From Antedon mediterranea (Eukaryota > Animalia > Echinodermata), in NCBI RefSeq assembly GCF_964355755.1, contig NC_092674.1:19530001-19594000 (forward strand): a stretch of DNA of 64,000 nt, written 5' to 3'. Positions 35,965 to 55,760 of the stretch are shown in pieces (within the stretch, counting starts at the first letter, position 1; every line of letters begins with the position of its first letter). A program made the translations under genes and the position numbers. The notes beneath the pieces are model-generated. The model was not told where the DNA came from. It did not search any database and saw only the letters and a program-made list of their open reading frames with translations.

Positions 35965-38889
35965 TTTCAGTTTCAGTTTTTATTTTCCAATATAAACAAG
36001 TGTAATAAATATATGCAAAAAATGGAAGGATGACCAAAAAAGAGCAAAGTATTTGGTCACCTTAACAAAATAATTAATACATGATACAAACATAATTGAA
36101 GCACAGGACGAGACAATACTAGCTAAACATGTTGGCATATGAACTCAAAGATAGTGCGATAAAACCAAAAAAAGCAAAAGAACAATGTAAATGTAAACAT
36201 ATTTGTAACACTCATTGATAAGTTAAGAGCAAATTATTTTTATACAACTTTTTAAATACTTTGACAGATGATGAATTACGAATAGAAGCATCAATACTGT
36301 TCCATAAAATTGGACCATGTCCTCTGATAGTGTTTCTACCCATATCGGTAACAAAATTATAAGGACGATAAGTATCAAAGGACCTGATGCCATAATTATG
36401 AGCTGAGTTTACTCTAACAAAATAATTAAAAAAGTTAGCTGGTAATAAATTATTCTTAAATTTGTACATGAAAACACCTTTTGATAACTTATGAATTTCA
36501 TACACAGTTAAGTTGTTAAGACTAGCAATAATGGTGGTGAATGCTCAAGGAATTGAGAATTTGTGCATAAACGCATTATGCGCTTTTGTTTGCGATAAAC
36601 AGTTTCAAGGCGACAGTTATTGTGGTCAGCCTAAATCAAGCTGCAGTTTTGAATTTGAGGAAGAACTAGAGTCTTGTATAAGGATGTTAGAACATTGACA
36701 TGTAAAATTGGTTTTAGCCTAAAAAGAATACCAGAATATCTTGAAATTAAGTTTGCAATATGGATTGTATGTTGATTCCAGGTTAAGCATTCGTCCATTA
36801 TTACACCAAGAAATTTACAACTAGATACACGAGAGATGTCATTGTAAACACGGTTACTATATCTGTTCTTTAAAATCATATAATTAGTTTTATTAGCATT
36901 AAGCGATAACTTATTTGCTTTAAACCAACTCGAGATAGTCGAGAGATCGGAATTAACATTATCAACTAGACGGTTTAAAACATTATCTGAAATTAAAAGG
37001 TTAGTGTCATCAGCATATAAAATAAGATTGGAGTGTTTACAGATGTTTGCTAAATCGTTAATGTAAATAATAAAGAGTAGCGGGCCTAAAATTGAGCCCT
37101 GTGGAACACCACAACAAATGTTTAAAGAAGAAGAACTATGATAATTAAAGAGATATATTGCTTTCTATCCGCCAGGTAACTTCTGAACCAATCAAAGGCA
37201 ACACCACGTATACCATAATGCTGTAGTTTAGACAGGAGAATGTCGTGATTAACGGTGTCAAAGGCCTTTGAAAGGTCCAGAAATATCCCAAGAACATGCT
37301 TTTTCTTATCTAATTCAGAGATTATTTTACCATATGCTTGTAGAACAGCCATTTCAGTAGACATGTTTGGGCGGAAACCAAATTGGTTTTCTTGCAATAA
37401 ATTAAATCGAGAAAAATAATTATAGAGTCTTTTATGAATTATGCGTTCTAAAACTTAGGAGAAAACGGGCAGTACCGAGATGGGCCTATAATTGCTAAAT
37501 TTATCAGTCTCACCATGTTTAAAGACGGGAATTATCTTGGCAATTTTCAGCTTCTCCGGGACAATACCGGTAGCTAGTGATAAATTAAAAATATGAACAA
37601 GTGGAGATGCTATTAATTACCCAACAGATTTAATAATACCTGTATCTGGTTTAATGTCATCGAAACCGCTGCTAGCACCAGATTTCAGATTTCTGAATAT
37701 AGTGAGTACTTCATCTTTATCAGTTGGTTAAAAAAACAGAGAGCTAACGGGTGATTTTATGTTATTTATAAAATAATTAAAAGTAATATCAGATTGAGGA
37801 ATTTTACGCAGGTATTCAGGACCAATGTTGACAAAGTATTTATTAAAGTTATCAGCAATAATTTGAGAATCAGATATATGTATATCATTTATTTAAAAAA
37901 ATGATGATATGTGTTTATTGTTTTGTCTACCCATAATGTTATTGAGAACATTCTAAGTCTGTTTTGAATTAAATTTTGTTTCCTCAAGCTTTTCAGCATA
38001 ATACTGCTGTTTAGAAATCCTGATTAAAGAAGTAAGTTTATTACGATAATTAACATAAGACGTTTTGTTGGATTCAGTAGGGTTACTTGCATACTTTTTG
38101 TATAATTTATCTTTTCGAGTTATTGATTTTAGGATCGCCGAAGTAATCCAAGGCTTTTGAGGAATACAACGACGCCGGGAATTGTTGTTGGAATGTTTAG
38201 AGATGGGAAAATGTACATTGTAGACCTCTGTGAATTTATGGATGAAAACATTATATGCATGGTCAGCAGAAGAATCAAGATCAGTATTACAACTCCAATC
38301 AACCAAGCTTAAATTTTCATAAAAGTGTTGAATTCTAGTTTAGTTAAATAAACGAGTGGAAATTTTATTCGAAGTATTTGAGTTGCTAATTGGAGTTGAT
38401 TTAGTGATTTGGTAAACAGGATAATGATCAGAAACATCGGCAATAACAACACCCGATTTTATATAATGAGTAAAAACGTTAGTGAAAATGTTATCAATTA
38501 AGGAAGCTGTTAAATGGGTAATTCTGGTGGGTCTATCGATAAGAGGAAACATATTATGGTTATAAAAAATAGAGAGGAACTCATTAACAATGTGATTGTC
38601 ATTAGAATGTAGAAGGTCAAGATTAAAATCACCGGATATATAACATTGTTTTTCTTCAGTATTAATTTTTGTGAGACAGTTTGTAAGATCATAAAAAAAT
38701 GTTTCAATATTGGTTCGATGAGCACGATAGATATTGCCACAACAATGTTTTTCCTACCGGAAACTGTTATTTCGATAAAGATAGATTCAGAATGATCAAA
38801 GTGCTCAGACGGTTTTTCAATTAATTTTAAATCATTCCGGATTCGAAATGAGATTGTATTACGAACATCGATAACAACACCACCACTTC
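35965..38889 (-). mobile_element. Decayed LINE ORF2 (APE-RT, CR1/L2 group), 3' part
   Basis: Minus-strand motifs RPTRI..LIDNIF, SDHYP, PWIT, QFGFR, FLDLSKAFDTV, GVPQGSILGP, YADD, KFLG; broken by stops and frameshifts. 3' end AATAAA followed by an (ACTGAA)2 tail at ~35965-35985. Confidence 0.92.
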
Positions 38890-39277
38890 AGTAGTATATA
38901 AGGGAATACAGACCCGAATGAAAGGTCATACCCCCAGGGCAGGAGTATTCCAGACCCGAATAGAAGGTCATACCCCCAGGGAATATTTCATATTTCTATT
39001 GTTTAATTTCCAGGTATTGTAATAATAATTAGTGAAAAGTCATTCTTTGTACCAGACCGGAAAGGAATATCATATCCCTAGGGTATTATATTTTCTATTG
39101 TTTAATTTCCTGTTATTGTAATATTAATTAGCGAAAGGTCATTCTTTGTTAGAGAAGGGGGTTTGTTATTTTGGCGGGGTTTTCGTTTTGGCCTGGGTTA
39201 AAATATATTAGTGAAGGTAGTTCTTTGTTTGAGGATTGCTATTGTTATTTTTAGGCGGTTTGACCATTGCATAGGTC
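38890..39277 (+). repeat. Left terminal inverted repeat of the Polinton
   Basis: Matches the reverse complement of 53874-54296 except for scattered substitutions and a ~30-bp indel. Contains 3 internal CAGACC.GAA..TCATA.CCC.AGGG sub-repeats. Confidence 0.93.
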
Positions 39278-39453
39278 TCTTTTGTTTAGTATTTCCTAAT
39301 TTCTTTTGTTCATTGTTCTTTTTGTTTGGTACAATAGTTTTGTTTTTTATATTTTAGAGCCGTTTCTCTTTAGACATTGTAAGAAGAGGGACTGCTTTTT
39401 GTGACCTTTCCAGTTGTTTCGTCTATTTTATCGTAGAGTTACAGTATTTCGCT

Positions 39454-40005
39454 ATGTCTGGAAGTATAGATTTTTCGTTAGGTAGCTGTGTAGATACAGT
39501 TATAATTATTAGCGATGATGAGGAGACTGTTGTTACAGGTAACGATATCGGTGATCGGTACATGCGGACCAATGAGGGTGTACCCGCCGGTGTTGATGAA
39601 GGAGATGAGAGGGGTAGCCGGGCTACAAGTTGTATATTTACGTACGTAGATGAGGTGGAGAGAGAATTTTTATTGAAATTGGAATATTTAGCCAGAGAAG
39701 TGTTTGTTTCTCAAATGTTAAACATGTGTTGGATGTTAAGTAAAGCGGCTTGTTATGGTTGCGAATTTGATAGGCCTGGTCAAAAAGATCATGACTTCTG
39801 TTTAATGAAATCTCCAGAAGAACAGATTGATTATTTTTATCGGGAGGTTCTGGATAAAGAGTATGTTACAGACGATACCGTGTACAGCGAGATGAATAAG
39901 TACGAGGAATATTCATTACCACGGTATAGACATTTTGTTTACTTTCTCGTAAATACCTTGAGTAATTCAGAGAACCTGTATAAGTTATTGTGTGAGGATA
40001 TCTAA
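39454..40005 (+). CDS. Polinton accessory protein (183 aa): acidic N-terminus with SIM-like motif and CxxC-H-C putative zinc site
   Basis: Open ATG-initiated ORF just inside the left TIR; VIIISDDEE; CYGCEFDRPGQKDHDFC. Confidence 0.7.
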   Translation: MSGSIDFSLGSCVDTVIIISDDEETVVTGNDIGDRYMRTNEGVPAGVDEGDERGSRATSCIFTYVDEVEREFLLKLEYLAREVFVSQMLNMCWMLSKAACYGCEFDRPGQKDHDFCLMKSPEEQIDYFYREVLDKEYVTDDTVYSEMNKYEEYSLPRYRHFVYFLVNTLSNSENLYKLLCEDI

Positions 40006-40261
40006 AACGTGTTTCGCACGTGCCACGGAAAAACGATTGACCGGAAAACAAACAATTAACAATGCTTTAATCCGCATGCGTTGTAGGGAGACAATTGATA
40101 GGAAAAACAATTAACAACGCTTTAGGCTAATTACTTTTAAAAAGGTACTTCCGTACTCAACTGTATATATATCGGAGCTGATTCAAACGAAATCATTCCG
40201 AACTATCAACCATCATTCGTTTTACTCTCTCTGTACTTCCCTCTACATACAATCGCTCAAC

Positions 40262-41077
40262 ATGAGTTTCAAAAACGTACCTGCTCCAAAATTAGCAATT
40301 GGTGAGAAGGCTCGTAGGACTATGAAAAGAGTTATGGGAAGCTCTAAATCTGACGAGTTAAGCAGTTTTAAAGTACCAATGATGACTTCTAACTCCTCGA
40401 AATTATTGGATCCTAGAAAATTTTTCAACGGTCAATCTAACGATTTGAGTAAAGCAACGAAGCCGTCAACAAGTAAAAAAACATTTCACTCTGCCTCAGG
40501 AATGAGCGCCAAGGATTATGTCGAAATGACCGGTGCTGAACCAAAGATTACAATAACCTCAACAAACAGGATTTTTCTGTCTGAAAAACGCCATGTAGTG
40601 GCCCAGCGCTGGGGTGAAGTTGTTTATGTTTGCCTCAGAGAATTTTATCAAACGGAAGAAAATGGTGCCTTCAAACCTAGGCCTGTAGGTATTAATTTAC
40701 CCGTTCTGTTGTGGCAAAAACTTTTTACCAATATTGATTTAATTCTTCAAGCCCTAGACGATTTGCAAAGAGACATTAACTTGGTGGAGGCAGTAAGAAT
40801 CCCTCTTTCGGACACACCTATATTACATGTGATAGTTAGTAACTGGAAAGAAGAGCAGTTTGTATGTATTCGCCGTTGTTACCAGGCCGAAGAAGGAGGT
40901 GAGTTTAAGCCCGGCAAAAAAGGTATAAACCTTCCAAAGAAACAATGGTACAAGTTGATCGAACAACACGGCGAAATACAAAAGATGATTGAAGAGGTTG
41001 ATAATGCGGTTACCGTCGACGGTGGTGTTGACGAAAACGATAACGGAGGACGCAGGTCTACATCAATGTTGAAATAA
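40262..41077 (+). CDS. Tandem PC4/Sub1-like ssDNA-binding domain protein (271 aa)
   Basis: Two repeats, VYVCLREFY..GAFKPRPVGINLPVLLWQKL and QFVCIRRCY..GEFKPGKKGINLPKKQWYKL, match the PC4 signature IDIREY..GEMKPGRKGISL..EQW..L. Ser/Lys-rich N-terminus; TATA-like tract at ~40164; AATAAA at ~41259. Confidence 0.85.
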   Translation: MSFKNVPAPKLAIGEKARRTMKRVMGSSKSDELSSFKVPMMTSNSSKLLDPRKFFNGQSNDLSKATKPSTSKKTFHSASGMSAKDYVEMTGAEPKITITSTNRIFLSEKRHVVAQRWGEVVYVCLREFYQTEENGAFKPRPVGINLPVLLWQKLFTNIDLILQALDDLQRDINLVEAVRIPLSDTPILHVIVSNWKEEQFVCIRRCYQAEEGGEFKPGKKGINLPKKQWYKLIEQHGEIQKMIEEVDNAVTVDGGVDENDNGGRRSTSMLK

Positions 41078-41367
41078 CATTCTTAACAATGAACTCTAAA
41101 TCAAATTATTTGTTTACCGACGTCATTTACAATTTATTTGTATTCTTTTATTTTCACGATTATTCTAATTACTTGCAATTATTTTTAAAAGTATTTGTAT
41201 TCCGAATGTATGTAAACTATATTTACAATTGTACTATATTTGATTCGTGCGGTGTGTTAATAAAAAATATTGTTTGATAATTTACAAAAAAAAAAAAAAT
41301 GTTGTTGTTCTTTTTTTAAAAGTAATGTTTTATGTGTGAGTGTTTCATTTCAACGAGTGAGAGAGTT

Positions 41368-42426
41368 ATGGACAGACTATTAAGTTCTACGTACTACGAC
41401 CCAAAAAACCCTGGTAGTTTCGGGGGTGTCGATCGACTTTATACAAACGTGAAAAATGACTCTAATATTTCAAAGACTGACGTTCAAGACTGGTTAGAAA
41501 AACAAGATACGTACACTCTTCATAAACCTATTCAAAGACGTTTTCAGAGAAACAGGGTGTTTGTTACAGCTATTGACGAGCAGTGGGAATTGGATCTCGT
41601 TGACTTGTCTTCTTTAAAAAAGTATAATAAACAAAACACGTTTCTTATTACGTGTATAGACGTACTTAGTAAATATGCATGGGTTTTACCTATAAAGAAT
41701 AAATCTGCCGGTTCTATGCTTACTGCTATGAAAAAACTATTATCTGGAAAAAGAAAGCCATTAAAAATTCACACTGATAAAGGTACAGAGTTTACTAATC
41801 GTAAAGTTCAAGCGCTCCTAAAATCGTTGAATATACATTTTTTCACTACCAATAACGAAACAAAAGCTAGCGTCGTGGAAAGATTCAATAGATCGTTGAA
41901 AACTAGGATGTGGAGATACTTTACATCAAAAGCTACTCGAAAATATATAGACGTACTTCCAAAATTGGTATCGAGTTACAATAATTCTAAACACAGATCA
42001 ATCGGTATGGCGCCCTCACAGGTTACAAAAGATAACGAACATGAAGTTTGGGAAAATCTGTATAAAATGAAGCAAAAGAAACAAGTTCGGCCCAAGTTCA
42101 AAGAGGGTAATAAAGTGCGAATAAGTAGATACAAAATGCCTTTCGAGAAAGGTTACCTGGCAAACTGGACGGAGGAGATATTTAGGATACGTAAGCGTAC
42201 CGGTTCGACCGTTCCCACATATAAACTGGAGGATTGGGACGGCGAAATCATAGAAGGTACTTTTTACGAAAAGGAATTGCAAAAAGTATCCAAAAGCGAC
42301 AAGGATACGTATCGCGTGGAAGAAGTAATAAAGAAAAGAAAAGGAGGAGGGAAAACGGAATATTTCGTTAAGTGGTTAGGTTATCCAGCCAAGTTCAACA
42401 GTTGGGTTCAGAATATTGCCCGGTAA
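41368..42426 (+). CDS. Retroviral-like (RVE/DDE) integrase with C-terminal chromodomain
   Basis: YYDPKNPGSFGG, YTLHKP, WELDLVD, HTDKGTEF, ASVVERFNRSLK; chromo YRVEEV..EYFVKWLGY..NSW. Start may be 41332 or 41368. Confidence 0.95.
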   Translation: MDRLLSSTYYDPKNPGSFGGVDRLYTNVKNDSNISKTDVQDWLEKQDTYTLHKPIQRRFQRNRVFVTAIDEQWELDLVDLSSLKKYNKQNTFLITCIDVLSKYAWVLPIKNKSAGSMLTAMKKLLSGKRKPLKIHTDKGTEFTNRKVQALLKSLNIHFFTTNNETKASVVERFNRSLKTRMWRYFTSKATRKYIDVLPKLVSSYNNSKHRSIGMAPSQVTKDNEHEVWENLYKMKQKKQVRPKFKEGNKVRISRYKMPFEKGYLANWTEEIFRIRKRTGSTVPTYKLEDWDGEIIEGTFYEKELQKVSKSDKDTYRVEEVIKKRKGGGKTEYFVKWLGYPAKFNSWVQNIAR

Positions 42427-42431
42427 ACATC

Positions 42432-43208
42432 ATGACGGCTCAGTTTTACGTCCTCTTACCTAGCAACAGTTCCATGAACTGTTTTCCCGAAAATACTCTT
42501 ACGAGATACACGACCAAGCTGGCGGAGCCTATTCATTTGTACGGTGAATGGGAGGTTGGTTTAAGCGAAATTTATTATCCCCACACGTGGTATAACGTCG
42601 ACGATACCAACAATAAATTGCTGGTGAATATAAACGATAACGAATTAGAAGAAGAAGACTCGTCGATCGAAATAGCTATAGCCCCAGGGTTTTATTCAAC
42701 CGGAGGTAAAGTGATTGATGCTCTTAACGAGGTTTTGGTTTCAAAGTCGTTACAGTCCAAAGTGAGATTTCGGTTCAGCTCAATTAAAGAAGTGATTAAC
42801 GTGGAAACCGCCAAAGAAGCATCAGTTACGCTATTAAATGGATTACCCATATTACTCGGTATGGACGAATCATCGATTCCCCGAGGATCTATTACACACG
42901 GTTCTAGACCCGCGTACATTCATCACAGAGTGCCGACGTTGTTTTTGTACACCGATATAATCGAATCTCAACGAGTTGGAGACGCGAGCGTCCCTATTTT
43001 GAAAGCGCTACAAACCAGAGAATCAAACATGAAGAAAAATGTCGGACATACGTTTGCTAGTCCGCAATACAAAAGGGTGGTGAAAAAAGATATCGATACC
43101 ATCCTTATAGATATAAGAAACGACACGGGAGAAAAGGTATCATTTCAACGAGGAAGGGTTCTCGCTAAACTACATTTCAGACAGGCCAGATCGTCGTACC
43201 TCGTTTAA
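42432..43208 (+). CDS. Minor capsid protein (penton, single jelly-roll)
   Basis: FYVLLPSNSSM..FPENT..YTTKL..L.GEWEVGLSEI.YP N-terminus and LYTDIIE..VGD..P.L..P.Y..I.I.I....G..V.F..G....LHF C-terminus typical of Polinton minor capsids. First ATG at 42432. Confidence 0.85.
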   Translation: MTAQFYVLLPSNSSMNCFPENTLTRYTTKLAEPIHLYGEWEVGLSEIYYPHTWYNVDDTNNKLLVNINDNELEEEDSSIEIAIAPGFYSTGGKVIDALNEVLVSKSLQSKVRFRFSSIKEVINVETAKEASVTLLNGLPILLGMDESSIPRGSITHGSRPAYIHHRVPTLFLYTDIIESQRVGDASVPILKALQTRESNMKKNVGHTFASPQYKRVVKKDIDTILIDIRNDTGEKVSFQRGRVLAKLHFRQARSSYLV

Positions 43209-43234
43209 AAAAAAACAACAACAAATAAATAAAG

Positions 43235-43621
43235 ATGGGGGCAGATGATTACGAAGATTACTACGTCAGACAGGCTGGAGGTATCGACATACCGGTGTTC
43301 CAAGGGTCGTACAAGCAAAGAGGGTTCGGGTTGGGAGGTATCTTGTCCGGTCTCTTTAAACAGGCTGTACCGCTGCTAAAGAAAGGTGCAAAGGCTCTCG
43401 GAAAACAAGCATTGCGCACGGGTGGCGAATTAGTGGGAGATGTTCTGAGCGGTAAAAACGTTAAACAAGCTGCAAAACGCAGATTTACTCAGGCGGGTCA
43501 ACGTATCGTTTCCCAAAATGGTAACGGTAGGGTGAATAAAAAGAGAAAACGTAAGCGTAAAGGCATCAGTCGATCGAACGCAAAGAGAGTAAGAAGATCC
43601 TCCGATATATTCGATATCTAA
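43235..43621 (+). CDS. Small basic virion/core protein with amphipathic helix (128 aa)
   Basis: YY..QAGG, QRGFGLGGILSGLFKQAVPLLKKGAKALGKQAL, QNGNG and an Arg/Lys-rich tail; lies between penton and MCP. Confidence 0.75.
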   Translation: MGADDYEDYYVRQAGGIDIPVFQGSYKQRGFGLGGILSGLFKQAVPLLKKGAKALGKQALRTGGELVGDVLSGKNVKQAAKRRFTQAGQRIVSQNGNGRVNKKRKRKRKGISRSNAKRVRRSSDIFDI

Positions 43622-43624
43622 AAA

Positions 43625-44947
43625 ATGGCTTTTGTACACAATCACTCGTGCGAGTGTTTAAAATCGGAATTGGACTTGTTTTCTGTACCGCCGACACAGA
43701 CTAGTATAACCAAAGGACAATGGGTGCAATATCACCCTTTCAACAGCATCACCGACGTGGGCCCCTTGCAATTCAACATACAAGGGTCTAGCGAGGAATA
43801 CATGGATTTGTCGCAGACGATGCTTAATGTTAAACTAAAAATTACTAAACAAGACGGAACCGATCTCCAGCCCGCCGATCCGGTAGGCCCTGCCAATTTA
43901 CTTTTGCAATCATTGTTTAGCGAAGTTGACGTTTCTTTGAACGAGAGATTGATTACCCCTTCGACAAATACTTATTCGTATAGGGCATTAATTGAAACAT
44001 TACTGACTTATGGATCCGATGCCAAGAATACACACCTCACGGGTGGGTTGTTTCATAAAGACACGGCCGGTAAAATGGATGTAGCTGACCCTACGCTAGC
44101 CGAAAATGCGGTGAATAAAGGTCTTAAAAAACGGGCTCAATACATTGGCGGTAGTCGTTTTGTCGACTTGATTGGACCTATTCATTGCGATATATTTTTC
44201 CAAGATCGGATGATGCTCAACGGTGTAGATGTCAAAATTAAACTGCATCGAAGTAAAAACGCATTTAGTCTCATGTCTTCAGATGCCGCGGCCGGTTTTA
44301 AGATCCGCCTGGAAGACGCGTCCTTGTTTGTTCGCAAGGTCCGCCTGAACCCGTCTATCGCGCTAGCCCACGCAAAAGCTCTGGAACGCGGTCCGGCCAA
44401 ATACCCGCTGCGTCGCGTTGAGGTCAAGACATTAACTATACCGCGCGGGAATCTATCGTTTACGAGGGAATCGCTGTACAACGGTAATCTACCGAAACGT
44501 CTGGTTGTAGGACTGGTGACCACCGAAGCATTCAACGGTAGCTACGAGAAGAACCCCTACAATTTTCAACATTTCAACACCAATTTCCTGGCTCTATATA
44601 TTGACGGTGAGCAAGTACCGTGGAAACCGTTAAAACCAACGTTCGAAGACGGAGGCAACTACATGCTGGCGTATCAGAGTCTATTTTCGGGTTCTAACAC
44701 TTTGTTCCAGGATACCGGAAATCAGATTTCTAGAGACGATTATCCTAAAGGCTATTCGTTGTTTGCTTTTGACCTGACTCCCGATTTGGCAAATGCCGGA
44801 CATTTTAATCTAATTCGGCAAGGAAATATACGTTTAGAAATTCAGTTTTCTACGGCTTTGACCGAGACCATCAACATTTTAGTTTATTCAGAATTTGATT
44901 CAATCATAGAAATTGACAAGTCTCGTAACGTAATTATAGATTTTTAA
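43625..44947 (+). CDS. Major capsid protein (double jelly-roll, hexon-like; 440 aa)
   Basis: KSELDLFSVPPTQTSI, P.N....SLF, Y.YRA.IE.LL, G.LPKRLVVG, F.G....NP.NF, Y..GY.LFAFDL motifs typical of Polinton MCP. Confidence 0.92.
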   Translation: MAFVHNHSCECLKSELDLFSVPPTQTSITKGQWVQYHPFNSITDVGPLQFNIQGSSEEYMDLSQTMLNVKLKITKQDGTDLQPADPVGPANLLLQSLFSEVDVSLNERLITPSTNTYSYRALIETLLTYGSDAKNTHLTGGLFHKDTAGKMDVADPTLAENAVNKGLKKRAQYIGGSRFVDLIGPIHCDIFFQDRMMLNGVDVKIKLHRSKNAFSLMSSDAAAGFKIRLEDASLFVRKVRLNPSIALAHAKALERGPAKYPLRRVEVKTLTIPRGNLSFTRESLYNGNLPKRLVVGLVTTEAFNGSYEKNPYNFQHFNTNFLALYIDGEQVPWKPLKPTFEDGGNYMLAYQSLFSGSNTLFQDTGNQISRDDYPKGYSLFAFDLTPDLANAGHFNLIRQGNIRLEIQFSTALTETINILVYSEFDSIIEIDKSRNVIIDF

Positions 44948-44949
44948 TT

Positions 44950-45474
44950 ATGAACACGATACAACTATTGAGGTTAATTAAATCAGATCCGTTGGCTATT
45001 GGATACTTTCGAGGGGTGTACCCGTCTGACTTGTTACCTTTAGGGCATACGGGATATCCTAGAGCTTACATAGCAAACGTTGAGCCTAGCAATCAAAACG
45101 GTTCGCATTGGGTAGCTTTCTTTTTTAACAACTTAAACAAAGGTGAATTTTTCGATTCTTTTGGGAACCCCCCAAATTACTATAGTAATCATTTTGTTAA
45201 TTTTCTCGATAACTCTGTAGAAAGTTGGACATTTAACGATAAAGCGTTACAAGCGCCCTTGTCTACGGTATGCGGACAGTATTGTATTTTTTATATTCTT
45301 CATAAATGTAGAAGAGTGGATACGTCCACGATAGTAAATATGTTTGGTAAAGATAAACCATCCAATGATTGGTTCGTCAATGATTTTGTAAAACGTCGAT
45401 ACGATGTTAACTTACCCGTATACGATAGTGAATATATTAAAGTACAATTTGTCAAAATGTTATTGAATGCGTAG
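44950..45474 (+). CDS. Adenain-like maturation cysteine protease (174 aa)
   Basis: GSHWVA (His), FFDSFG (Asp), LQ (oxyanion Gln), CGQYC (Cys). AATAAA follows at ~45478. Confidence 0.92.
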   Translation: MNTIQLLRLIKSDPLAIGYFRGVYPSDLLPLGHTGYPRAYIANVEPSNQNGSHWVAFFFNNLNKGEFFDSFGNPPNYYSNHFVNFLDNSVESWTFNDKALQAPLSTVCGQYCIFYILHKCRRVDTSTIVNMFGKDKPSNDWFVNDFVKRRYDVNLPVYDSEYIKVQFVKMLLNA

Positions 45475-45613
45475 TAAATAAAAATTGTTTTTTTTTTAAA
45501 ATGGATATGTTTTGGACGTTTTATTTATCGAACGACTACAACAACAAATTAGAGTTTATTTCTTTTTTTATTCAACTCCTTTCCTCATTATAGTACATAA
45601 AGATTAATGTTTT

Positions 45614-46384
45614 TTAAAAATTTAACCATTTAGGTTTAGGTTGTCTAGTTGAACGCCTCTTGGCAGGCGCTCGAAAGGTAAGTTTTTCATCCTCATCATC
45701 ATCGTCATCGAGGTCATAATCCTCCTCATTCTTTCGTTTAGGTAGTGCGTGAGGAGGTGTACCGCTCGATTTAATTCTTTGTAAGGTACGACGTCTCGTC
45801 GGATTTCCAATCAAACTTTCTGGGGTGTTCAATTTCGCCAATACCGTTATAAAATCCCTCCAGCCTATAGGTTCAAATCCTTTCTTTTCTTGTATTATAT
45901 CTTTAGTCAAATCTAGTAAATTACTCCCCTTTACCATTTGTCCTTCGATTAGTAGTTCACCGTATCTTGACCAATCAATTACTCCCATCTTCCGGTAACG
46001 GTCTAGTCGGTCCAGAAATGTTTTTGTTTTGGATTTCAACGATGAGGGCATACTTTGTAGTATTTCTTTAGATATAGAGTCCGTATAATCTTCTTTAGAT
46101 TCTGCGCCATTTTCGTTTATTTCAACGTTCCCCGTTTGTTGTACGTTCAAGCTCATAGGTGAAGGGTTATTTACGGGTTTCTCTTTATTTAAATATCGTT
46201 GAAGTACTTGATTGTACATGGTAATTTTATCGTAATCGTGCAAGTCATCCCTTTCGAGTATACCCTTCATAGAATTATCTAAACCAGAAGTGATTGTCTC
46301 GTGATTTTTCTCGTAACGTTTACTGTACAGAGCCGTATTTGCCAGTTCTTGGGGTATCAATACCATTTTCTTGGTGTGCTGCAT
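45614..46384 (-). CDS. Polinton uncharacterised protein (256 aa)
   Basis: Open ORF; KKMVLIP start, GSNLLDL..EPIGW..F..L..NTPESLIGN core, acidic and basic tail. ATG overlaps the upstream stop (TAATG). Confidence 0.75.
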   Translation of the reverse strand: MQHTKKMVLIPQELANTALYSKRYEKNHETITSGLDNSMKGILERDDLHDYDKITMYNQVLQRYLNKEKPVNNPSPMSLNVQQTGNVEINENGAESKEDYTDSISKEILQSMPSSLKSKTKTFLDRLDRYRKMGVIDWSRYGELLIEGQMVKGSNLLDLTKDIIQEKKGFEPIGWRDFITVLAKLNTPESLIGNPTRRRTLQRIKSSGTPPHALPKRKNEEDYDLDDDDDEDEKLTFRAPAKRRSTRQPKPKWLNF

Positions 46385-46710
46385 TATTTCAAAAGTAAAC
46401 TACCCAATGTTTGTAGAATCGGTTGTAATATAAGACCGAGGAAGCCGCCCTTTTGAATAAGTAAACGTTTTCTCTTGAGAGGCGAAATGCTTTTATTGGT
46501 AATATCGCGCATGTGTTTCTTGTACCGAGCCAACTTCTTCTTGTGAGCGTTGGATACTTGCACTCGACCTTTTAAAACATTCATTGCGCATTCGCACAAA
46601 GCCGTCACCAGTTGATCGTCCGCGTTATCCAAGATAATTTTTCTTTGACGCGGTGAACAGTGGGCTAGGAAACGAATAGTTTCAGCGTTCTTTTTGATAC
46701 GTTTCGACAT
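46384..46710 (-). CDS. Small basic Polinton protein (108 aa) with C-terminal QKGG-amphipathic helix
   Basis: MSKRIKKNA..LCECAMNVLKG..LLIQKGGFLGLILQPILQTLGSLLLK. The ATG at 46710 is preferred over the overlapping 46782 start. Confidence 0.75.
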   Translation of the reverse strand: MSKRIKKNAETIRFLAHCSPRQRKIILDNADDQLVTALCECAMNVLKGRVQVSNAHKKKLARYKKHMRDITNKSISPLKRKRLLIQKGGFLGLILQPILQTLGSLLLK

Positions 46711-46759
46711 GATGTTGGTAAATAGGTAAATGAATAAATAGAACGGTACAGGCTGCGTT

Positions 46760-47395
46760 TTATATTCTAGGCACGTAAACAAAGTGATTGGTTTTTGAAA
46801 ATATGTTACTTCTAACCCTCATTTCCTCAGGGGTATTTGCTTTTAGATCGATTAAAAGAAAACCGTACGGTACGCGGGTAGCGTCTTCAAAAGCCTCCTG
46901 TAAAAAACGTCCTTTACCGGGGTACATTTGTTTAGATAGATTAGCTATTTGTGATTTATCCCGAGGGTTTTTAAATAGTATTATGTAGTGAGCGTTTAAA
47001 GTGATGGTGCGGATTTCTTTAGAACCGTAAAAAAAGTTTTGCATAATGAATATAACCGAAATGTTTCTATGATGCGATCCCTTTGTAAACATGTTTACTA
47101 CTCTTTTATCGCGGCTACACTCGGTCATTAAATCATCGATGATTACTAAATGGTTTTTTGACGGTTCCATCGTTTCTATCGAATCCATAGGTATCCCCTC
47201 TATAAATTTAATGTTGTTAATAGACCCGCTCAGTTCGGTGAAAAGGGGCTGATATTCCCCATAACACCACGTGATGTCATCGAACGGCTTGTCGAAATAA
47301 TTACTTTCCAATAACTGCTTCACGAAATATGATTTTCCCGATGAGGTCGGTCCGCTAATTACGGCGGTGAAGGGGGTTACCAGTACACATGTCAT
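46760..47395 (-). CDS. Genome-packaging ATPase (A32/FtsK-HerA family)
   Basis: Walker A GPTSSGKS, Walker B LVIIDD, GSHHRNISV..Q, LFKNPRD, YGFLLID..R.R. ATG 47395 preceded by a TATA-like TTATAAAA on the minus strand. Confidence 0.92.
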   Translation of the reverse strand: MTCVLVTPFTAVISGPTSSGKSYFVKQLLESNYFDKPFDDITWCYGEYQPLFTELSGSINNIKFIEGIPMDSIETMEPSKNHLVIIDDLMTECSRDKRVVNMFTKGSHHRNISVIFIMQNFFYGSKEIRTITLNAHYIILFKNPRDKSQIANLSKQMYPGKGRFLQEAFEDATRVPYGFLLIDLKANTPEEMRVRSNIFSKTNHFVYVPRI

Positions 47396-47628
47396 CTTCA
47401 GTTTCAATGAGTCATAGCTTTTGTATATCGGTATTTTATAACGAGGGGGGTTCCTTATCCACATCACTCTATTTTAAAAACTGTCAACTAATGAAAGAGA
47501 GAGAGAGGGCCGATATTATAAACCAATAGGAGCTTAATAATGATAATTACGTTAACAAATGATTGTATATCAAAACCTAAAAAATCAATTCCAACGTCAT
47601 TAGCGTCTGTATACTAGTAGAGAGAGAA
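47396..47628. promoter_or_regulatory. Divergent intergenic/promoter region between ATPase and Bcl-2-like genes
   Basis: Head-to-head ORFs; TATA-like element at ~47434-47441 (minus) and CCAAT at ~47523. Function inferred. Confidence 0.45.
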
Positions 47629-48031
47629 ATGGCAGATTTGGAAAAACTGACTCTATCGTACATTGAATATAAATTAACGGGGGTAGTTGTGTGGGACTCC
47701 CCAATCCTTTATAGTACTATTCGCCTTTGTAACGAGGTGGAGAAAAAGTATGGTTTGATTGCCTTGTGTAAAGACATTACTACGGAGACGTTGGATAGTG
47801 TGTTGAAAGAAATGATGATAGACCAAAATATACACGTCGGTAGACTCGTGACAGGAATTTCAGTGTGCGCACGTGTTGCGATGCAGTGTGATACTGATTT
47901 AGAATTAGAAATCGTTAAACGCGTATCCTGCGAATTTGTGAAGGAAAAGTTTTCTTTATTAGAACTTTGTAACGACAGTGATTTGGTAAGTAAATTTCTT
48001 TTTCTTGTTATTCTCATTTTAGTAATTAAGT

Positions 48032-48092
<61 letters not shown>

Positions 48093-48153
48093 GGAACTTG
48101 TTCTGTGTAGTAAGAAGCTAGGAATTAACAGAGCATGGTACTTGATCGACTGA
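47629..48153 (+). CDS. Viral Bcl-2-like protein, two exons (47629-47985, 48094-48153; hydrophobic tail would continue to 48198)
   Basis: BH4-like LTLSYIEYKL, BH3-like IRLCNEVEKKY, BH1-like VLKEMMIDQNIHVGRLVT. Donor TTG|GTAAGT at 47986, poly-T tract and TAG acceptor at 48093 (phase 0). Exon 2 ELVLCSKKLGINRAWYLID*LVGICIALLEQTVW*. AATAAA at ~48208. Confidence 0.75.
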
Positions 48154-48439
48154 CTAGTAGGCATTTGTATAGCCTTGCTGGAACAAACTGTTTGGTGACA
48201 TTGGATAAATAAAATATTTAAACAAGGAAGAGGAGAGATTACAATATTTATATTGGATAGGATAAAATAAAAATACAGTCAACACTACGCATGTCTTTTG
48301 TTGTTGTTGTTGTCGTCGTCATCGTCGTCGTCTACGTTAAGAAACAGACAAGTATATAATATTATAAACAAGTACGGTGTATACATTTATTTCTCGTAAA
48401 ACAAAATTATGATAAAGAAAATAATTATTTACAAAAATA

Positions 48440-48830
48440 AATTTGAAACGGTAACGATATAAGAATTCAAAAGGAAAAAATATTTAAATTAAAATTACAA
48501 AATATATTTACTTTATCTACAAAAAATAGAAACGGTATCGACTTTATAAACTTTATAAACAAAATTGAAAATGTATAAAAAATATTTACATTAAAACTTG
48601 AAATATAATTTGCTTAAACTACAAAAAAGGAAACGGTAACGACATAAGAATTCAAATGTAAAAAAATATTTAAATTAAAAATACAAAATATATTTACTTA
48701 ATCTACTAACAGAGAAACGGTACCGACTTTATAAACAAAATTAAAAGAAAATTTGATTAAAAACATGTATAAAAATATTTACATTAAAACTACAAATATA
48801 ATTTGCTTAAGCTACAAAAAAGAAAACGAA
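48440..48830. repeat. AT-rich imperfect duplication (~185-bp period) between the convergent Bcl-2-like and pPolB 3' ends
   Basis: GAAACGGTAACGA.ATAAGAATTCAAA at ~48445 and ~48630; AGAAACGGTA.CGACTTTATAAAC and AAAAATATTTACATTAAAACT each occur twice. Confidence 0.75.
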
Positions 48831-48951
48831 TTTATAAAGGAAATTGAGTGCATGAAATTACATAAAAAGTAACAATTAATTATTTATATATAAAAAAAAA
48901 AAAGTAAGTTATATTTTAAAAGAAAAAAGAGATGAAATTTATTGCAGTGAT

Positions 48952-51900
48952 TTACCAAACATAACCGTAAGGAACTGTACGATAATTTTCGATAATAATT
49001 CTTTTATCGTACACGATTCGATAGTCTTTAGTCGATGTTTCGTTGACTATCTTACGTGTTTTTGGCTTGCGCGTTATGCGATTCTTCTCAACTGTCTTAA
49101 TTGTATTAGGACCAATACCTCTTACCATATTGGAGACGGTGTCAAAGTTAATTTTCTGAGCGTTTGTAAAATTAAGGGTAAAACCTTTAACTTTACAAAC
49201 GGTCTTCCCTGTATCCAATTTATAGGCGTAGTTCTTAGCCCCCCCAGAAACAAAGGACTCGATGTACTTACCGTCTTTAGGGTCGACCTCGGTCGTTAAC
49301 TGACCCAAGTAGTCGCCCAGGGGAGGGTCCCACAACCCGGGTTTTGACACGTAGATTACACTGTCGGTATCGTAATACAGGACACGTTCCTGTAATTTCT
49401 CCAACAGTTCGTATAATTTTAAACGCGCTAGCGCAGTGGTAAATGCGGCAATGACAACGTTAACCTTTCGGTTAACTTCAACAAATTGTTCCTCGTCTTC
49501 GTATTTTATTTCAGCCAAATCATCATTAACAAAATTTAGATCATGAACGACTACCCGTGGGTTCGATAAAATATCGTAAACCTCGTTAGGATCTTGCGTA
49601 TATTTAATTCTCGTGAGATTTTCACGCTGACCAAATTTACCCCAAAAACTATTTAGCATTAATTTGGCCAGAGATCGAAGCCCAGGATTGTACGCAATGT
49701 CGTCATGATTCAAGTCGATACCTTCTACGGTTCGATAGTCCGAAATATATTTTTGTTTATCTTCGGGCGTTTTACACCATTCAGGCCAACCCGAAGCTTC
49801 TTGTTTCAATTTTAAAAATGTGTTAATGTAAGAGGCAAATAGACCGGACGAGGGAGAATCTGCAGAGTACGCGCTTTTATTTTTAAAGTGCCATACTACG
49901 TGAACTTTACGTATCTCGTACCCAACCTCCACGGCTTTAGCGACCTCGATCGTTGCCCAAGAACCTGTAAATTCTCTATCTGTACCAGAATGATTGCAAG
50001 CGGTTTGTTGTTGAGAATCGACGCATGTTCTACAGAGAGCAAACATTAATTTACCGTTTGATCTATAAGGTAAGACTGGATGGAATAAATTTTTAGGCGC
50101 TTCGATAGTACACTTTATCAAACCGAAATACTCGTTGATATCTGTGGACATGTCTTTGCGATCATCGATTTCAGGATGTCCTACGGGGTAGGTACCGTAT
50201 TTATTTACATAAGGGTACAATGAAGTATAATCGATGTAATTAATTTCTTCACCCGGTTTTACCTTATAGAACAAACAACTGGCATTAGTCCTCCCACCGA
50301 AAAACGCGTCTCTTGGATTCAAAGTTTGCCTAATGAAAGGAACTTTGGAGACGATAGATTTAATGTTAGGGGCCAGCGATTGTTTGATCCGTTTCCATTC
50401 GTGTTCCCAAATTTCGACGTACTCAAAATCTGGAAATTGCTCCTTCAGAAACCGTGTTTTCTTGCTTGTTTTGACAAAGCATTCCAACATGGCTTCGTTA
50501 GTGAAGGGGTTAATGGAATCGGATCTATAACATTCTTGGCACCCGTGGAACAAACAGCCCATAAATTCAAAAATAATTTTGTTTTCTAAACATGCGCCGT
50601 CGACAAAGTAAGGCCCAAACATTTTTTCCCCTCCATTTCTCGCATGATGGATAAAGACCCCCCTTTTATGCGACTCGTAGCACAGCCATTCCATGCTAGA
50701 GTGAGAATGGTTAACGGTTGTCATATACCCTGATGGTGGAAATAAAGCGATGGAGGATGGTTTTAAAAAATTTCTAGAAAAGACGTGATTACACGCCGAG
50801 GCAATTGTCATTAAATTATTTGAAAAGGGGTCAACGCCTCCGAGTAGAGGGTTTTTCGGCGATGTAGTTACTTTCAAAAAAAGATGCCTAAAAGTAAGAC
50901 AACACTTTCTGAGAATATCCACATCGCTGATGCAATACTCGACGAGTTCTTTTTGGAGATTGAAAATTTGATTAGTTTCAATTTTCTGATTATACCATTT
51001 AAAGAATGATTCTCGGCCTGAAGTAGTCATTTTATCGGGGGAATAGGTGGAAGAATCGGGATAAGGACCTACGTAATTTTTATTTTCTAAAGTATTGAAA
51101 TAATGAGGAAAGTAACCTTTTTTTAGCTCGGCGATGCCAAAAGTTTTGGGTAATTTGGATAGAGACATGGGTAGAAATGAAAGGGAATCAATGAATCGGA
51201 TACTCGTTTCTTTAACCTTAATTGAAATAGGTTTACCACCGCGAGCAATAATATCTGGGACAATACAGTTTTTGTATAGGTACTCGAGCACGAAGTAACT
51301 ATCGTAGCCCTGGAGGTTGTGAGCGATACACGTAATGTTATGATTATATTTGTATTCGTTAAAAACGTAATTGCAAAAATCTACGCATGCAGTCTCCCCG
51401 TGAAAAGTCATTGATTTCTCCCCACACACGTCGCACTCGTCAGAGTCATTAGCACCATCGATACAATTAAGACAAGTTTTTTGAAGAACGCATAAATTTG
51501 GTTTGTGTTCGCCAGTTTCTTGCGTGCATTCAAAATCAAAAAAGAAATATTTAGTGACAGCCCTTTTTTGGTCCTCCTGATTCTTAAACTTTTTTTCAGT
51601 ATGTTTAGGGGCTACAACCGGTTCCATGTAGCATTGATGATCGTATGAAACGAAAGTCCGACAAATTCTACAAAAACGGTTTTGACAATTGTGATCTTTT
51701 TGAATAATCCTATCACAAGTTGTACAATTTTTAATTTTGTCACATACTGAAACTTTTTTAGAATCAGGAGATTTTTTATGATTGGTGAAACATTGCTGGT
51801 GTTTAAAAAATCTATTGCACTCTTTACACTCTACAGTACTATTTACACGTGTGTTAATGGAAGGGTCACAATCGTTGTGCTTACAAAGCACACACGTATA

Positions 51901-53477
51901 TTGGCAATTGTGAGAATGTTTGTGCTTATAGCCCTTGAAACATTTGTCACAGTAATAATCTACTTTTAAAAAACCTGTTATTGTTGATATGAAGTCGTAA
52001 TGATTATCATGATGGTAAAGATAAATCTGCTTCTTACAATAATCGCCGCTAAAAATTACAGAATTTAAATTGTCTTTGGAAAGGACAATAATTTGATAAT
52101 TTGGTAATTTGGATTGCATCTTTTTTAATTCCTCGATGCCGCAAGCTTGCTCCCTAACCCCCGAATCTCTAAGTAAATGAAGGGCGGCTGTTTTTTGTTG
52201 GCCTCGACCTCTCCTAACATTATTCCACCTAGTCACGTTGTTAATTTTGTCTTCGATCATGGAAATACCCGTAACAATAGCGCGTGCGCAGCAGATAGTT
52301 TCGTTACCATCATTCTTAATCTTAATTACACTTCTAGAATTAAACAGTTTGTCGATACCGTTTCTTCTATGGCCCCCACCCCTAGGCATTCTCATATGGA
52401 GAACGTTAAACTTAAATTTTTTATTAATAAATATATCAGTTTTGGACTGAAGGACCTTCATGATGGCTGCAAAAATAACATCAGCTGTCAGATGGGCCCT
52501 CCGTCCAAAAGGAATAGAGATAGGTGTATCCAACCCCTCAGCCTGAATAACTATCCGAAGCATATCGTCGACATGCACGTTAATGCAAAGATTATCGACG
52601 ACATGCTCGAAAATTCTATAAAGAGTGGGCAGGAACACCTCTAAACTTAAATGGTCTACATTAAAAAAATTAACTACAAAATCGCTAATAGTAGCGTTAA
52701 AACGTTGATTAAACCTATCGACTAATTTATTTATTGTACAAAAATGACTTAAATCTACCTCGTCAAGGTTCAATTCATCGCTGTCATTATCGTCAACTTC
52801 TTCTTCTTCGGCTATCCTTGATCTTTTCCTGTTGGCTCCTTTCCCGTATTGTACCGGTACAGGCTGAAATAAAAAAGTATAACGGTAAAGAAATAGAAAT
52901 AAAGCGCTTTAATACAACAACAATAGTAAAGAAAATAAAATGATAGTTACCTCATCAATAACCGAAGACTCCTGAGAATCACTATCCTCGACACTTTCCC
53001 TCATTTTCAAACATTTGGTGTGTGCACCAATACCATACTAAAGAAAAAAATTTAAAAAAAAATTAGAAAGGAAACGCGTTGGTACTGTAAACACAGAAAC
53101 ACGTTCGTTTACACAAGCTACTCTACGAGTTATATACGGTAATTAAAAAAAAATGATTACGTTAAAAATATATTAAACAAAAAAACACTTACTTCTACGT
53201 GATCAATTATTAAACTTTCAGACAGATCTTGAACAATCTCTATGGCGTTATCACATATATCCGTAAGAGAAAGACTACCGGTTTCAGAAATACTTTGACT
53301 GACCGGTAAATCAAAGTCCTGGTCTCCAAACACAAAATCCTCTAGTAAACCCACATCTGGGATATTATCGTCAGATAAATTAGCGCGCGATAGATTAACT
53401 ATAGCGTCAACAGCTCTTTGACACTCGATAAATAAACTATCGTTAGAATCAGTTGAGGAAGAAGCGAATTGAGACAT
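48952..53477 (-). CDS. Protein-primed family B DNA polymerase precursor, spliced (exons 53477-53193, 53037-52951, 52863-48952; ~1427 aa)
   Basis: Exonuclease FFDFEC, AHNLQGYD, YCISDVDIL; polymerase GGRT, YIDYTSLYP, KLMLNSFWGKFGQ, YYDTDS, KNYAY, KVKGF. The long ORF starts at a TTG in the track; two upstream phase-0 GT-AG introns link it in frame to ATG 53477. Confidence 0.9.
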
Positions 53478-53519
53478 TGCAAAACTTTGAAGAAAAAAAT
53501 CGGTACCGAAACTTTGAAG

Positions 53520-53873
53520 AATTAGTAAATGAATGATGAACTAAACAAGTAACACACGGTTATTAAAACCTTCCCGCGACGATTACGATTGGTCAGACAT
53601 TCTTTAGTAATTAGGAAACCCCGCCCACAATAGTGACCAGTAGATTTAGTCTTCACCCGAAAACACTGAGGGAGGAAACGGATTAATTAATTAATACTAC
53701 ACAAAGGTGACCATTGTAGTGGATAAGTCGACAAAATAATAACAATAGTACTCCTCAAACAAAGAATTACCTTCACTAATTAAAATCAAATTACATTATT
53801 TTTTAACCTTCCAATGAGCTTTACACTATTATGATTGGTCAAACACTCTTTAATAATTAGGAAACTCAAAGGT
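53520..53873 (-). promoter_or_regulatory. Putative pPolB promoter / subterminal repeats
   Basis: Duplicated GATTGGTCA.ACA.TCTTTA.TAATTAGGAAAC (CCAAT on minus) at ~53587 and ~53833; GC box CCCCGCCC at ~53618; duplicated CCTCAAACAAAGAA..ACCTTCACTAAT. Confidence 0.45.
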
Positions 53874-54296
53874 GACCTATGCAATGGTCAAACCGCCTAA
53901 AAATAACAATAGCAATCCTCAAACAAAGAACTACCTTCACTAATATATTTAAAATACAAATTCATCACCAACTACAATTATAACCCAGGCCAAAACGAAA
54001 ACCCCGCCAAAATAACAAACCCCCTTCCCTAACAAAGAATGACCTTTCGCTAATTAATATTACAATAACAGGAAATTAAAAAATAGAAAATATAATATAT
54101 ACCCTGGGGATATGACATTCCTTTCCGGTCTGGTACAAAGAATAACCTTTCACTAATTATTAATACAATAGCAGGAAATTAAACAATAGAAAATATGAAA
54201 TATGCCCTGGGGATATGACATTCCTTTCGGGTCTGGAATACTCCTGCCCTGGGGGTATGACCTTCCATTTTGGACTGTATTCCCTCTACCTCTACT
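53874..54296 (-). repeat. Right terminal inverted repeat of the Polinton
   Basis: Reverse complement of 38890-39277 plus ~30 extra bp; ends ...TCCCTCTACCTCTACT followed by the TSD CACTTC. Confidence 0.93.
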
Positions 54297-54485
54297 CACT
54301 TCTTCTGCCACAGCGTGGTGTATTAACCAAGTTATAGTTATCTATGTGGATTAAATTGGAACCATCTTCTTTAAACCAGGTTTCTGATGAAGCTAGAATC
54401 GAAAAGGTAATGCCTTAAACTAGTGAGGAAAGTGCTAATCAGATCAACGTTTTTATTGAAACTTCGTGGATTTATATGTAAGATG
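54297..54485 (-). mobile_element. 5' remainder of the interrupted LINE (start of APE endonuclease)
   Basis: Minus strand reads ILHINPRSFNKN..FSILASSETWFKE..NYNLVNTPRCGRR, which joins across the TSD to SGGVVIDVR at 38889. Confidence 0.9.
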
Positions 54486-55760
54486 TTTTTTAGTAAGTCT
54501 CATGAGCTACTTACACTATCTATGCGTAATTGCAAACTACCATGCCATGCCATGAGATCCTTGCACTGGCTTCCGATGTCTCATAGATGTCAATTCAAAA
54601 TAGCGTGTCTTGTATGGCGTTCGCTTAAAGGTTCCGCTCAAAGTTACCTGAGAGATATTCTTACTGTGCGGAATGTTTCTCGCAGTACTCGTTCAAGCAC
54701 CAGCAATTATAACCTGACAATCCCACGAACTAAACGAAAGACATTTGCTGACCGTTCGTTCGCCGTAGCAGGACCCAAAATTTGGAACAGATTACCAAGT
54801 CACATTAAACACTTAGAAGACTATAATCAGTTTAAAAAACATTTAAAAGCACTATATTTCAAACAATGTTACAATACTATTCATATTCATATTCATTTAT
54901 TATCCAGAAAAAATAATACAAAAACAATACAAAAAGCATATATAACATAGAACAACAACAAGCAGAGAAAAAGCGCAGAACACTATCCTGGCGGATTGTC
55001 AAAAAGCAAAAAATATCGCTATAAAAGACTCTCCTGATAGTGCTGGTGGCAAAATAACATTAACAAGGATAAACATTTAACAACCCGGTAACATAGAATT
55101 TATATAAAACAGAATAAAAATTGCAATCATTTTACTACAGGTGCTTTCAATTGGGTATAATGATATCAGCGGCATGAATTGGACTTTGCTGGGTACTTTC
55201 TTGAATGAGTTTCCAAACCTGATTAGGCTTTACATGAACGATTGTAAACTATTAGGTGACGTGATGAATGACATGATGAAGGCGATTGCAAAAGATGAGT
55301 TAAAATTAAAAGTCTTTAATATTGCCAATAATGATATTAGTGGCATTGTTGGTACTTTACTTGGTACTTTCTTGAGCAAGTCTCCATATCTGTTTGAACT
55401 AAACCTGGATAATTGTAAGATATCAGGTGACATAATGAATGAAATGATCAGTGTGTATGCTGAAGATGAGTTACAATTACAGGAGCTTTATATTGGGAAT
55501 AATGATTTCTGTTTCATTGATAGTACTTTACTTGGTATTTTCTTGAGGAAGTCTCCCAAGTTGCTTAAACTTTACATGCGTAATTGCAGTTTATCGGATG
55601 ACGTAGTGAATGCTATTCATCACAATTGCAAGAGTTAAGTATTTATTGAAAATAATGAATGGATTGCTCAGGGTGTATGGTGGGAATAAATTAGAATTTC
55701 AAAAGTTGCTGATATTCGTGACATTGAATGGTAGCGCTTTACTTGGTACTTTTTTCAAAT
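54486..55760 (+). pseudogene. NLR pseudogene, 3' LRR remainder (further interrupted at ~54545-55135)
   Basis: SKSHELLTLSMRNCKL at 54486-54541, and the same ~57-aa LRR units in ORF 55141-55638. Confidence 0.88.
54545..54877 (+). mobile_element. 3' fragment of an L2-like LINE ORF2
   Basis: LHWLP..FKIA..P.T..TFADRSFAVAGPKIWN.LP..FKK.LK. Followed by an (ATTCAT)3 tail with AATAAA on the minus strand, probably another LINE 3' end. Confidence 0.85.

Follow-up and report, generated by a model that had tools for sequence, protein, structure and literature searches.

A spliced Bcl-2-like gene with a polymorphic stop codon in a Polinton element of Antedon mediterranea

Polintons are elements of 15-20 kb with terminal inverted repeats starting with AG and a 6-bp target duplication. 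The same two boundary features, inverted repeats at the termini and target-site duplications of 6 bp, are given for Mavericks in the accessible text of PMC8097293, in which no introns are reported from intact vertebrate Mavericks. Homologues of Bcl2 and IAP have been described in adintoviruses (Starrett et al. 2021, PMC8502044), and anti-apoptotic homologues are also mentioned in a preprint (PMC11071296); a sequence-only reading of the locus described here had rightly mentioned the former. In the hosts, from sponge to mouse, the coding sequence of pro-survival genes is interrupted at the GGW tryptophan, ahead of the exon that encodes the tail (PMC8998228). Finally, a UGA codon followed by CUAG was present in all four efficient readthrough genes among seven tested, with readthrough of up to 31% (PMC4132726). 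In a literature search run mostly outside subscription papers, we found neither a spliced Polinton Bcl-2 nor readthrough in a viral Bcl-2, and the accessible part of PMC10748475 contains no passage on spliceosomal introns. Here we analysed a window of 64,000 nucleotides of Antedon mediterranea (GCF_964355755.1, contig NC_092674.1, positions 19,530,001 to 19,594,000), to which all coordinates below refer, and describe a Polinton whose Bcl-2-like gene is spliced and ends, in this copy, at a stop codon in a published leaky context.

The element and its spliced Bcl-2-like gene

The element spans 15407 bp (38890-54296) and both of its ends start with AGTAG. It is flanked by the 6-bp duplication CACTTC (left copy 38884..38889, right copy 54297..54302), and its left (38890..39284, + strand) and right (53867..54296, −) terminal inverted repeats align with 372 identical positions, 23 mismatches and 41 gap columns. 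Rightward from the left repeat, the + strand encodes a protein with two PC4 domains, a single-stranded DNA binding or coactivator type (40262..41077; Pfam PF02229, E 2.8e-22), a retroviral-type integrase with a chromodomain (41332..42426; Pfam rve E 7.6e-13, Chromo E 4.2e-8), three open reading frames of 258, 128 and 440 aa (42432..44947) and an adenovirus-type cysteine protease (44950..45474; Pfam Peptidase_C5 E 1.7e-4, above the cut-off). From Polinton gene order and their look, the 258-aa and 440-aa frames are probably the minor and major capsid proteins; the capsid-size frames had no match in Pfam, PHROGs or PDB sequences, and their size and place fit jelly-roll capsid proteins. The − strand carries a packaging ATPase (46760..47464; Pfam Pox_A32 E 6.6e-6, above the cut-off), divergent from the Bcl-2-like gene, and a protein-primed DNA polymerase B (48952..53477 with predicted 5' exons, the open frame being 48952-52563; Pfam DNA_pol_B_2 E 6.8e-46). 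Besides the Bcl-2-like gene, 11 open reading frames totalling 3619 codons are all open, with TAA (10) or TAG (1) as terminators, and the element is therefore not generally decayed. With its AG-starting inverted repeats, 6-bp target duplication, polymerase B, integrase, packaging ATPase and protease, it can be classed as an adintovirus-type Polinton that is still largely intact.

Several other features of the region were recorded. Just inside the left repeat, a 183-aa frame (39454-40005, +) combines an acidic N-terminal region with a cluster of Cys and His residues and may be an 'Oncoid'-type gene; a canonical LxCxE motif was not found in it, and Pfam gave no match above cut-off. The flank of the element holds a broken NACHT-LRR immune receptor gene with many leucine-rich repeats in several frames (30953-35751, +). 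Fragments on either side of the element (36212-38753, −, and 54483-54950, +) look to us like CR1/L2-type LINE reverse transcriptase and endonuclease. Farther away, an array with a spacing of about 54 nt (14537-15257) consists of partly self-complementary units, with many overlapping inverted repeats (about 75%).

The Bcl-2-like gene lies on the + strand between the inverted repeats, where the sequence-only reading had placed it. A candidate promoter with TATAAA and CCAAT, by consensus match only, is located about 110 nt upstream of the start codon (47516..47527, +). Exon 1 consists of 119 codons (47629..47985) and encodes a BH4-like helix 1, helix 2, a BH1 region with Gly-Arg, helices 5-6 and a diverged BH2 region; the three peptides that had been quoted as Bcl-2-like are located at residues 7-16, 31-41 and 58-75. 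It is followed by a phase-0 GT-AG intron of 108 nt (47986..48093), and the details proposed for this intron, namely GTAAGT at 47986, a 57-nt poly-T tract (48033-48089) and a TAG end at 48093, are all present in the assembled sequence. Exon 2 (48094..48150) has 19 codons to its first stop. The expected AATAAA signal is found at 48208 and is joined by a second one at 48266 (48208..48271).

Evidence for splicing came from the public runs that contain part of the window, 11 in number and none recorded as RNA, five of which were compared. A contig of 209 nt (depth 4) in run X9, a run with a third organism label whose kind is guessed to be DNA, matches 48093-48277 with 0 differences, extending beyond both AATAAA signals, and carries 24 extra letters in front. 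Within the window these letters have a single occurrence, at 47961-47984 at the end of exon 1, and they appeared in 0 of 100 shuffles. Because a G is shared at the joint, the junction is 47985/48094, exactly as predicted; the short side of this single supporting contig measures 25 letters, below the bridging rule of 31 letters. Run X9 holds only 0.08 of the words, as expected of a transcript; the contig may instead come from an intronless DNA copy. In the first four runs compared no joint was listed, the poly-T repeat being skipped in that comparison, and the acceptor shows no listed difference in any of the six contigs spanning it, one of which covers it near a contig end, where differences go unlisted. 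We conclude with high confidence that the 108-nt intron is removed at 47985/48094. Two other acceptors, at 48260 and 48278, which would lead into a valine-rich repeat frame, were considered and rejected: other copy classes have a different base at 48260, and the single spliced contig uses 48094. The repeat itself, a GTT/GTC tract 3' of the gene (48290-48335, +), would in another frame encode a membrane-like helix rich in valine, with lysines after it, and is reachable only through weak or non-conserved acceptors.

Fold, relatives and selection

That the gene encodes a Bcl-2 fold, as had been claimed, is practically certain from the profile, the relatives and the predicted structure of exon 1. 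The profile match on its own is sub-threshold (Pfam Bcl-2 PF00452, E 1.3e-4, 22.9 bits, below the curated cut-off of 31.4). The ESM Atlas groups exon 1 with Bcl-2 clusters: its first match scored 0.94 and the best ten named matches all belong to one clan. A model of exon 1 built from a four-row alignment reached pLDDT 79.6 and pTM 0.77, residues 111-119 being poorly modelled (mean pLDDT 49). Against 48161 chains its best structural match was Bcl-xL (Z 13.0, rmsd 2.9, 116 residues aligned), a Z near 13 being possible for helical bundles. Among the best 50 matches, ranks 1-34 are Bcl-2-fold proteins, counting the poxvirus proteins as having this fold, and the first other fold appears at Z 6.6. 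The groove-using Bcl-xL, Mcl-1 and their kin scored Z 11-13, versus Z 7.6-8.1 for poxvirus A46, A52, B14 and N1L. Foldseek with the exon 1 models returned nothing at E<=0.001; its top rank was Mcl-1 (probability 1.00, TM 0.61-0.65), and its viral matches were weak, the top one being the E1B small T protein (E 0.07, TM 0.51). A single-sequence fold of exon 1 (pLDDT 43.5, no significant Foldseek match) was set aside as evidence. Exon 1 had no match in PDB sequences, and in a word-indexed protein search none of six candidates passed.

A scan of 1.84 billion representatives with exon 1 gave a single match, P0001, a gene model of Anneissia japonica whose first 125 residues form a Bcl-2 domain with NWGR and GGW (44.8 bits, over the Pfam cut-off) and whose end is Polinton polymerase; exon 1 and P0001 align with 29% identity over 106 residues. 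Exon 1 and P0002, another of the Anneissia japonica models, gave a Smith-Waterman score of 142, compared with at most 52 in 1000 shuffles, and no local alignment was obtained between exon 2 and P0002. Four further Anneissia japonica models were found, making five relatives in total, near-identical or chimeric: XP_033096041.1, XP_033096711.1, XP_033123993.1 and XP_033121109.1, named 'bcl-2-related protein A1-like' in RefSeq, and XP_033096042.1 (LOC117100449), with 30-33% identity. They have the YIEYK and WDSP stretches in common with exon 1 and, unlike it, retain NW[GS]R and GGW; four of the five end without a hydrophobic tail. A profile search matched 2 of 449 candidates, both already known, the ESM Atlas gave only matches below 0.9 for P0002, and neither the Bcl-2-like gene nor the ATPase used as a query found relatives in viral and metagenome contigs. 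XP_033096042.1 is joined to a Polinton polymerase that is 57% identical over 134 residues to the polymerase of our element. This model is probably mis-joined, and the joining indicates that at least that copy sits in a Polinton. The four 'A1-like' models may represent cargo of Polintons that was annotated as host genes; the contig of XP_033096041.1 equals that of XP_033096042.1 in length (216518).

Alignment to the relatives places HVGR of the element opposite their NWGR or NWSR: Gly-Arg is kept and Asn-Trp lost. The GGW of BH2 is absent and the BH2 region has no unique alignment to the relatives. At the BH3 position there is no GD, a pair typical of killer Bcl-2 proteins.

Differences among copies point to constraint on the first exon. 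Of the exon 1 differences, taken from the best-supported 40 of 152, 9 of 14 are synonymous against an expected fraction of 0.21 (P 0.0006, or P 0.016 if 0.33 is assumed), a proportion like that of the listed differences in the ATPase (10 of 19). In exon 2 only one of 13 listed differences is synonymous, with 0 of 4 before the stop and 1 of 9 after it (Fisher P 0.004 versus exon 1). A copy class from organism B has 229 letters in place of the 241 of 47619-47859, with several short indels in the loop that follows helix 1; its frame is probably kept, since the overall loss, 12 letters, is divisible by three. We are confident that exon 1 is under purifying selection among copies. Since the synonymous bias is found in exon 1 and not in exon 2, the core domain appears constrained while the last exon changes fast or freely.

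Stop codon, tail and function

Exon 2 had been described as leading in frame to a hydrophobic tail, and here the sequence-only reading failed. In the window copy the frame of exon 2 runs for 19 codons into a TGA (48151-48153), and this stop precedes the hydrophobic stretch (48154-48195). The candidate membrane tail comprises 14 codons, the first nine hydrophobic, followed by a second TGA (48154..48198, +). The spliced product therefore has 138 residues to the first stop, and 153 if the stop is passed; an in-frame C-terminal membrane anchor is absent from the window copy, and in sister classes the frame is open. The nine codons after the stop have a mean hydropathy of 3.17 in the window, versus 1.81 in one sister class and 3.43 in another. 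The tail is short, with a best 17-residue hydropathy of 1.75 when X is read at the stop; among the relatives, C-terminal hydropathy is at most 0.41 in four of five, the fifth being a chimeric model.

The stop is found in all four runs compared over exon 2: X1, which may be the window's own source, X5, from another study, X8, from organism B, and the spliced contig of X9. The X1, X5 and X9 contigs show 0 differences from the window in the stop region, and the stop is therefore not an assembly error. The stop-bearing class of X8 differs from the window at 4 of 146 letters. Three of the four runs also hold a second class with a sense codon at this place, the change differing between the two organisms; the intron-bearing copies at the site come from two organism labels, and contig depths are not copy numbers. 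No indels were listed among the copy classes in exon 2, and the frame behind the stop is open.

The sequence at the stop is a published readthrough context, UGA followed by CUAG (TGACTAGTA at 48151), extended here to CTAGTA (48151..48159, +). In cells, UGA-CUA alone gave only 1.5% readthrough (PMC4132726). UGA CUA GUA was the strongest readthrough sequence in a reconstituted mammalian system, which is not an in vivo figure, and weak stop contexts acted there mostly in the absence of release factors (bioRxiv 2021.04.18.440353). Across the remaining genes of the element, CTAG comes after 7 of 3597 codons (0.19%). No downstream stimulatory structure stood out (z −1.67, 12/200 shuffles). A nonsense change common to the organism labels, in an element otherwise open and in a context met about once in 500 codons, is best explained by leakage and tolerance. 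We therefore propose, tentatively and somewhat short of an even chance, that the gene would make mostly a tail-less 138-residue protein, together with a minor, tail-anchored 153-residue form by predicted readthrough. In this proposal, which we hold no more firmly, the stop would have arisen in a replicating lineage and been tolerated because it is leaky. Against readthrough, exon 2 bears no purifying signal either before or after the stop, and the published readthrough figures all come from mammalian systems. Moreover, the tail's own stop is also TGA, which weakens the argument from stop usage. The shortness of the tail, its lower hydropathy in one sister class, the four tail-less relatives and the lack of a clear stimulatory structure count against readthrough as well.

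It is possible, if on the unlikely side, that the codon is the plain end of a working tail-less 138-residue Bcl-2 in one element lineage, its leaky context being a leftover of two sense codons. Indeed, the lack of a hydrophobic tail in four of five relatives means that the tail may not be needed; but CTAG is rare after codons in the other genes, as given above, and the frame after the stop has no indels and is kept open by sister classes. We consider it improbable that the stop has damaged the gene in a drifting copy lineage, with the working gene being the sense-codon sister class and its tail anchor, the form described by the sequence-only reading. Sense-codon classes do occur in three of the four runs, most Bcl-2 proteins need membrane anchoring (PMC7022251), and vertebrate Maverick loci are mostly degraded (PMC8097293). 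However, the 11 other frames of the same copy are open over their 3619 codons, the organism-B class has the same stop despite its 4 differing letters in 146, and the leaky context would have to be a 1-in-500 coincidence. Very improbable, finally, is an intron kept in some transcripts so as to supply its own tail: the frame 47629-48093 is open for 154 codons to the acceptor TAG and ends very hydrophobic (best 17-residue hydropathy 3.09), but the hydrophobic run is mostly poly-T read as Phe and hinges on the homopolymer length as assembled, the GC content of the intron is 0.10 versus 0.39-0.41 in the exons, and a spliced form exists.

By analogy with the family, the gene product likely blocks host cell death. 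The protein would probably bind, through its groove, the BH3 helices of host Bax/Bak-type proteins and so delay apoptosis while the element replicates. Less expected, and in our view unlikely, is a use of the Bcl-2 fold in a non-apoptotic role, such as the damping of autophagy or of innate-immune signalling. Such roles are known for some herpesvirus and poxvirus homologues (PMC7022251), and the loss of the BH1 tryptophan and of the BH2 GGW, together with a main form that is likely soluble, would suit them; on the other hand, the BH1 Gly-Arg is kept and the closest structures are those of the groove-using proteins, ranked above the poxvirus ones. If readthrough is true, it would provide a simple switch for the cellular location of a Bcl-2 protein, one open to direct testing because copies with the stop and copies lacking it both occur naturally. 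With its leaky context and its polymorphism among copies, the stop is the feature of greatest interest here and the one that lends itself best to testing.

Origin of the intron and comparison with known systems

The sequence-only reading had placed the intron at about the position of that of host genes in BH2 and taken this to suggest capture of the gene at the DNA level. The first claim is plausible: the phase is 0 and, when counted without gaps, the junction lies at helix-6 Phe+16 and the tryptophan of GGW at Phe+15 in all five relatives, that is, one codon apart; the BH2 region is too diverged to fix the position. In end-anchored alignments the junction falls from W-4 to W+4 within 5 points of the best score. 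Cheap gaps also admit W+9 to W+12 within 5 points, and stiffer gap costs leave just W-1 to W+4. We rather favour a host origin, in which the BH2 intron of a host gene would have come along as that gene was captured in DNA form. There is nevertheless an appreciable chance that the intron was gained inside the element, in which case the gene was possibly captured from mRNA. Exon 1 matches the viral genes in GC and GC3, which makes the capture old, and a BH2-dropping alignment, with the junction 9-12 codons after the tryptophan, is among those that cheap gaps allow. But stiffer gap costs remove that alignment, and a random gain would land in phase 0 within three codons of the host site with a chance of about 1.5%.

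A further point in favour of intron gain is that the polymerase gene, too, seems from its sequence to contain a pair of similarly built GT-AG introns, a finding that leaves DNA-level capture as a possibility only. Upstream of its first ATG, the polymerase frame stays open through 115 codons, a stretch without Met that resembles the start of a relative's polymerase (E 2e-4). Removal of two candidate introns on the − strand (53192-53038 and 52950-52864), which have GT-AG borders and strong signals, would link this stretch with an ATG farther upstream and give a frame of 1427 codons. This splice model is one of six open models and would add about 220 codons at the N-terminus (52564-53477). Such introns suggest that introns can arise or persist in the element lineage without host capture, and the captured gene is probably not the only one with introns.

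Taken together, one scenario would have a host Bcl-2 gene captured as DNA with its ancient BH2 intron kept, readthrough setting the ratio of soluble to anchored inhibitor, sister lineages having fixed the anchored form, and the polymerase likewise spliced, so that the element would rely on the host spliceosome; as a whole, we regard this chain as rather doubtful. That the copy is spliced, under selection and apparently transcribed speaks for a nuclear expression phase and a virus-like fight against cell death, and not for a silent transposon. Introns in an accessory gene and in the polymerase would widen the intronless picture of Mavericks (PMC8097293), and annotation by open reading frames only would truncate such genomes. 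Moreover, some echinoderm 'Bcl-2 A1-like' host gene models are probably viral cargo.

Compared with known systems, the stop shares with vertebrate UGA-CUAG readthrough genes (PMC4132726) and with viral leaky UGA codons the identical seven-letter context and a short C-terminal extension; it differs from the vertebrate cases in being polymorphic among copies, whereas theirs is conserved, and in that readthrough here is predicted. Adenovirus E1B-19K and other viral Bcl-2 mimics are, like our gene, highly diverged Bcl-2 folds in a nuclear DNA virus lineage. E1B-19K has no sequence link to exon 1, the Pfam E1B-19K profile giving no match, and its structural match is weak. To our knowledge, neither coding introns nor readthrough have been described for E1B-19K or the other viral mimics. 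The metazoan genes for Bcl-2, Bcl-xL, Mcl-1 and A1/Bfl-1 have the same fold and two coding exons split near BH2, the last one with the tail (PMC8998228). Unlike these pro-survival genes, the gene described here has much shorter loops and no BH3 GD, has lost the BH1 tryptophan and the BH2 GGW, and has its tail behind a stop. There is likewise a resemblance to the adintoviruses, in which an accessory Bcl2-like gene accompanies the genes for integrase, protease, ATPase and protein-primed polymerase in an element of animals (PMC8502044). The main text and part of the supplement text of that work mention no splicing or internal stop in the Bcl2 genes and describe no test of their function. Bcl-2 cargo in adintoviruses is known, and what is added here is a spliced and selected Bcl-2-fold gene in a Polinton.
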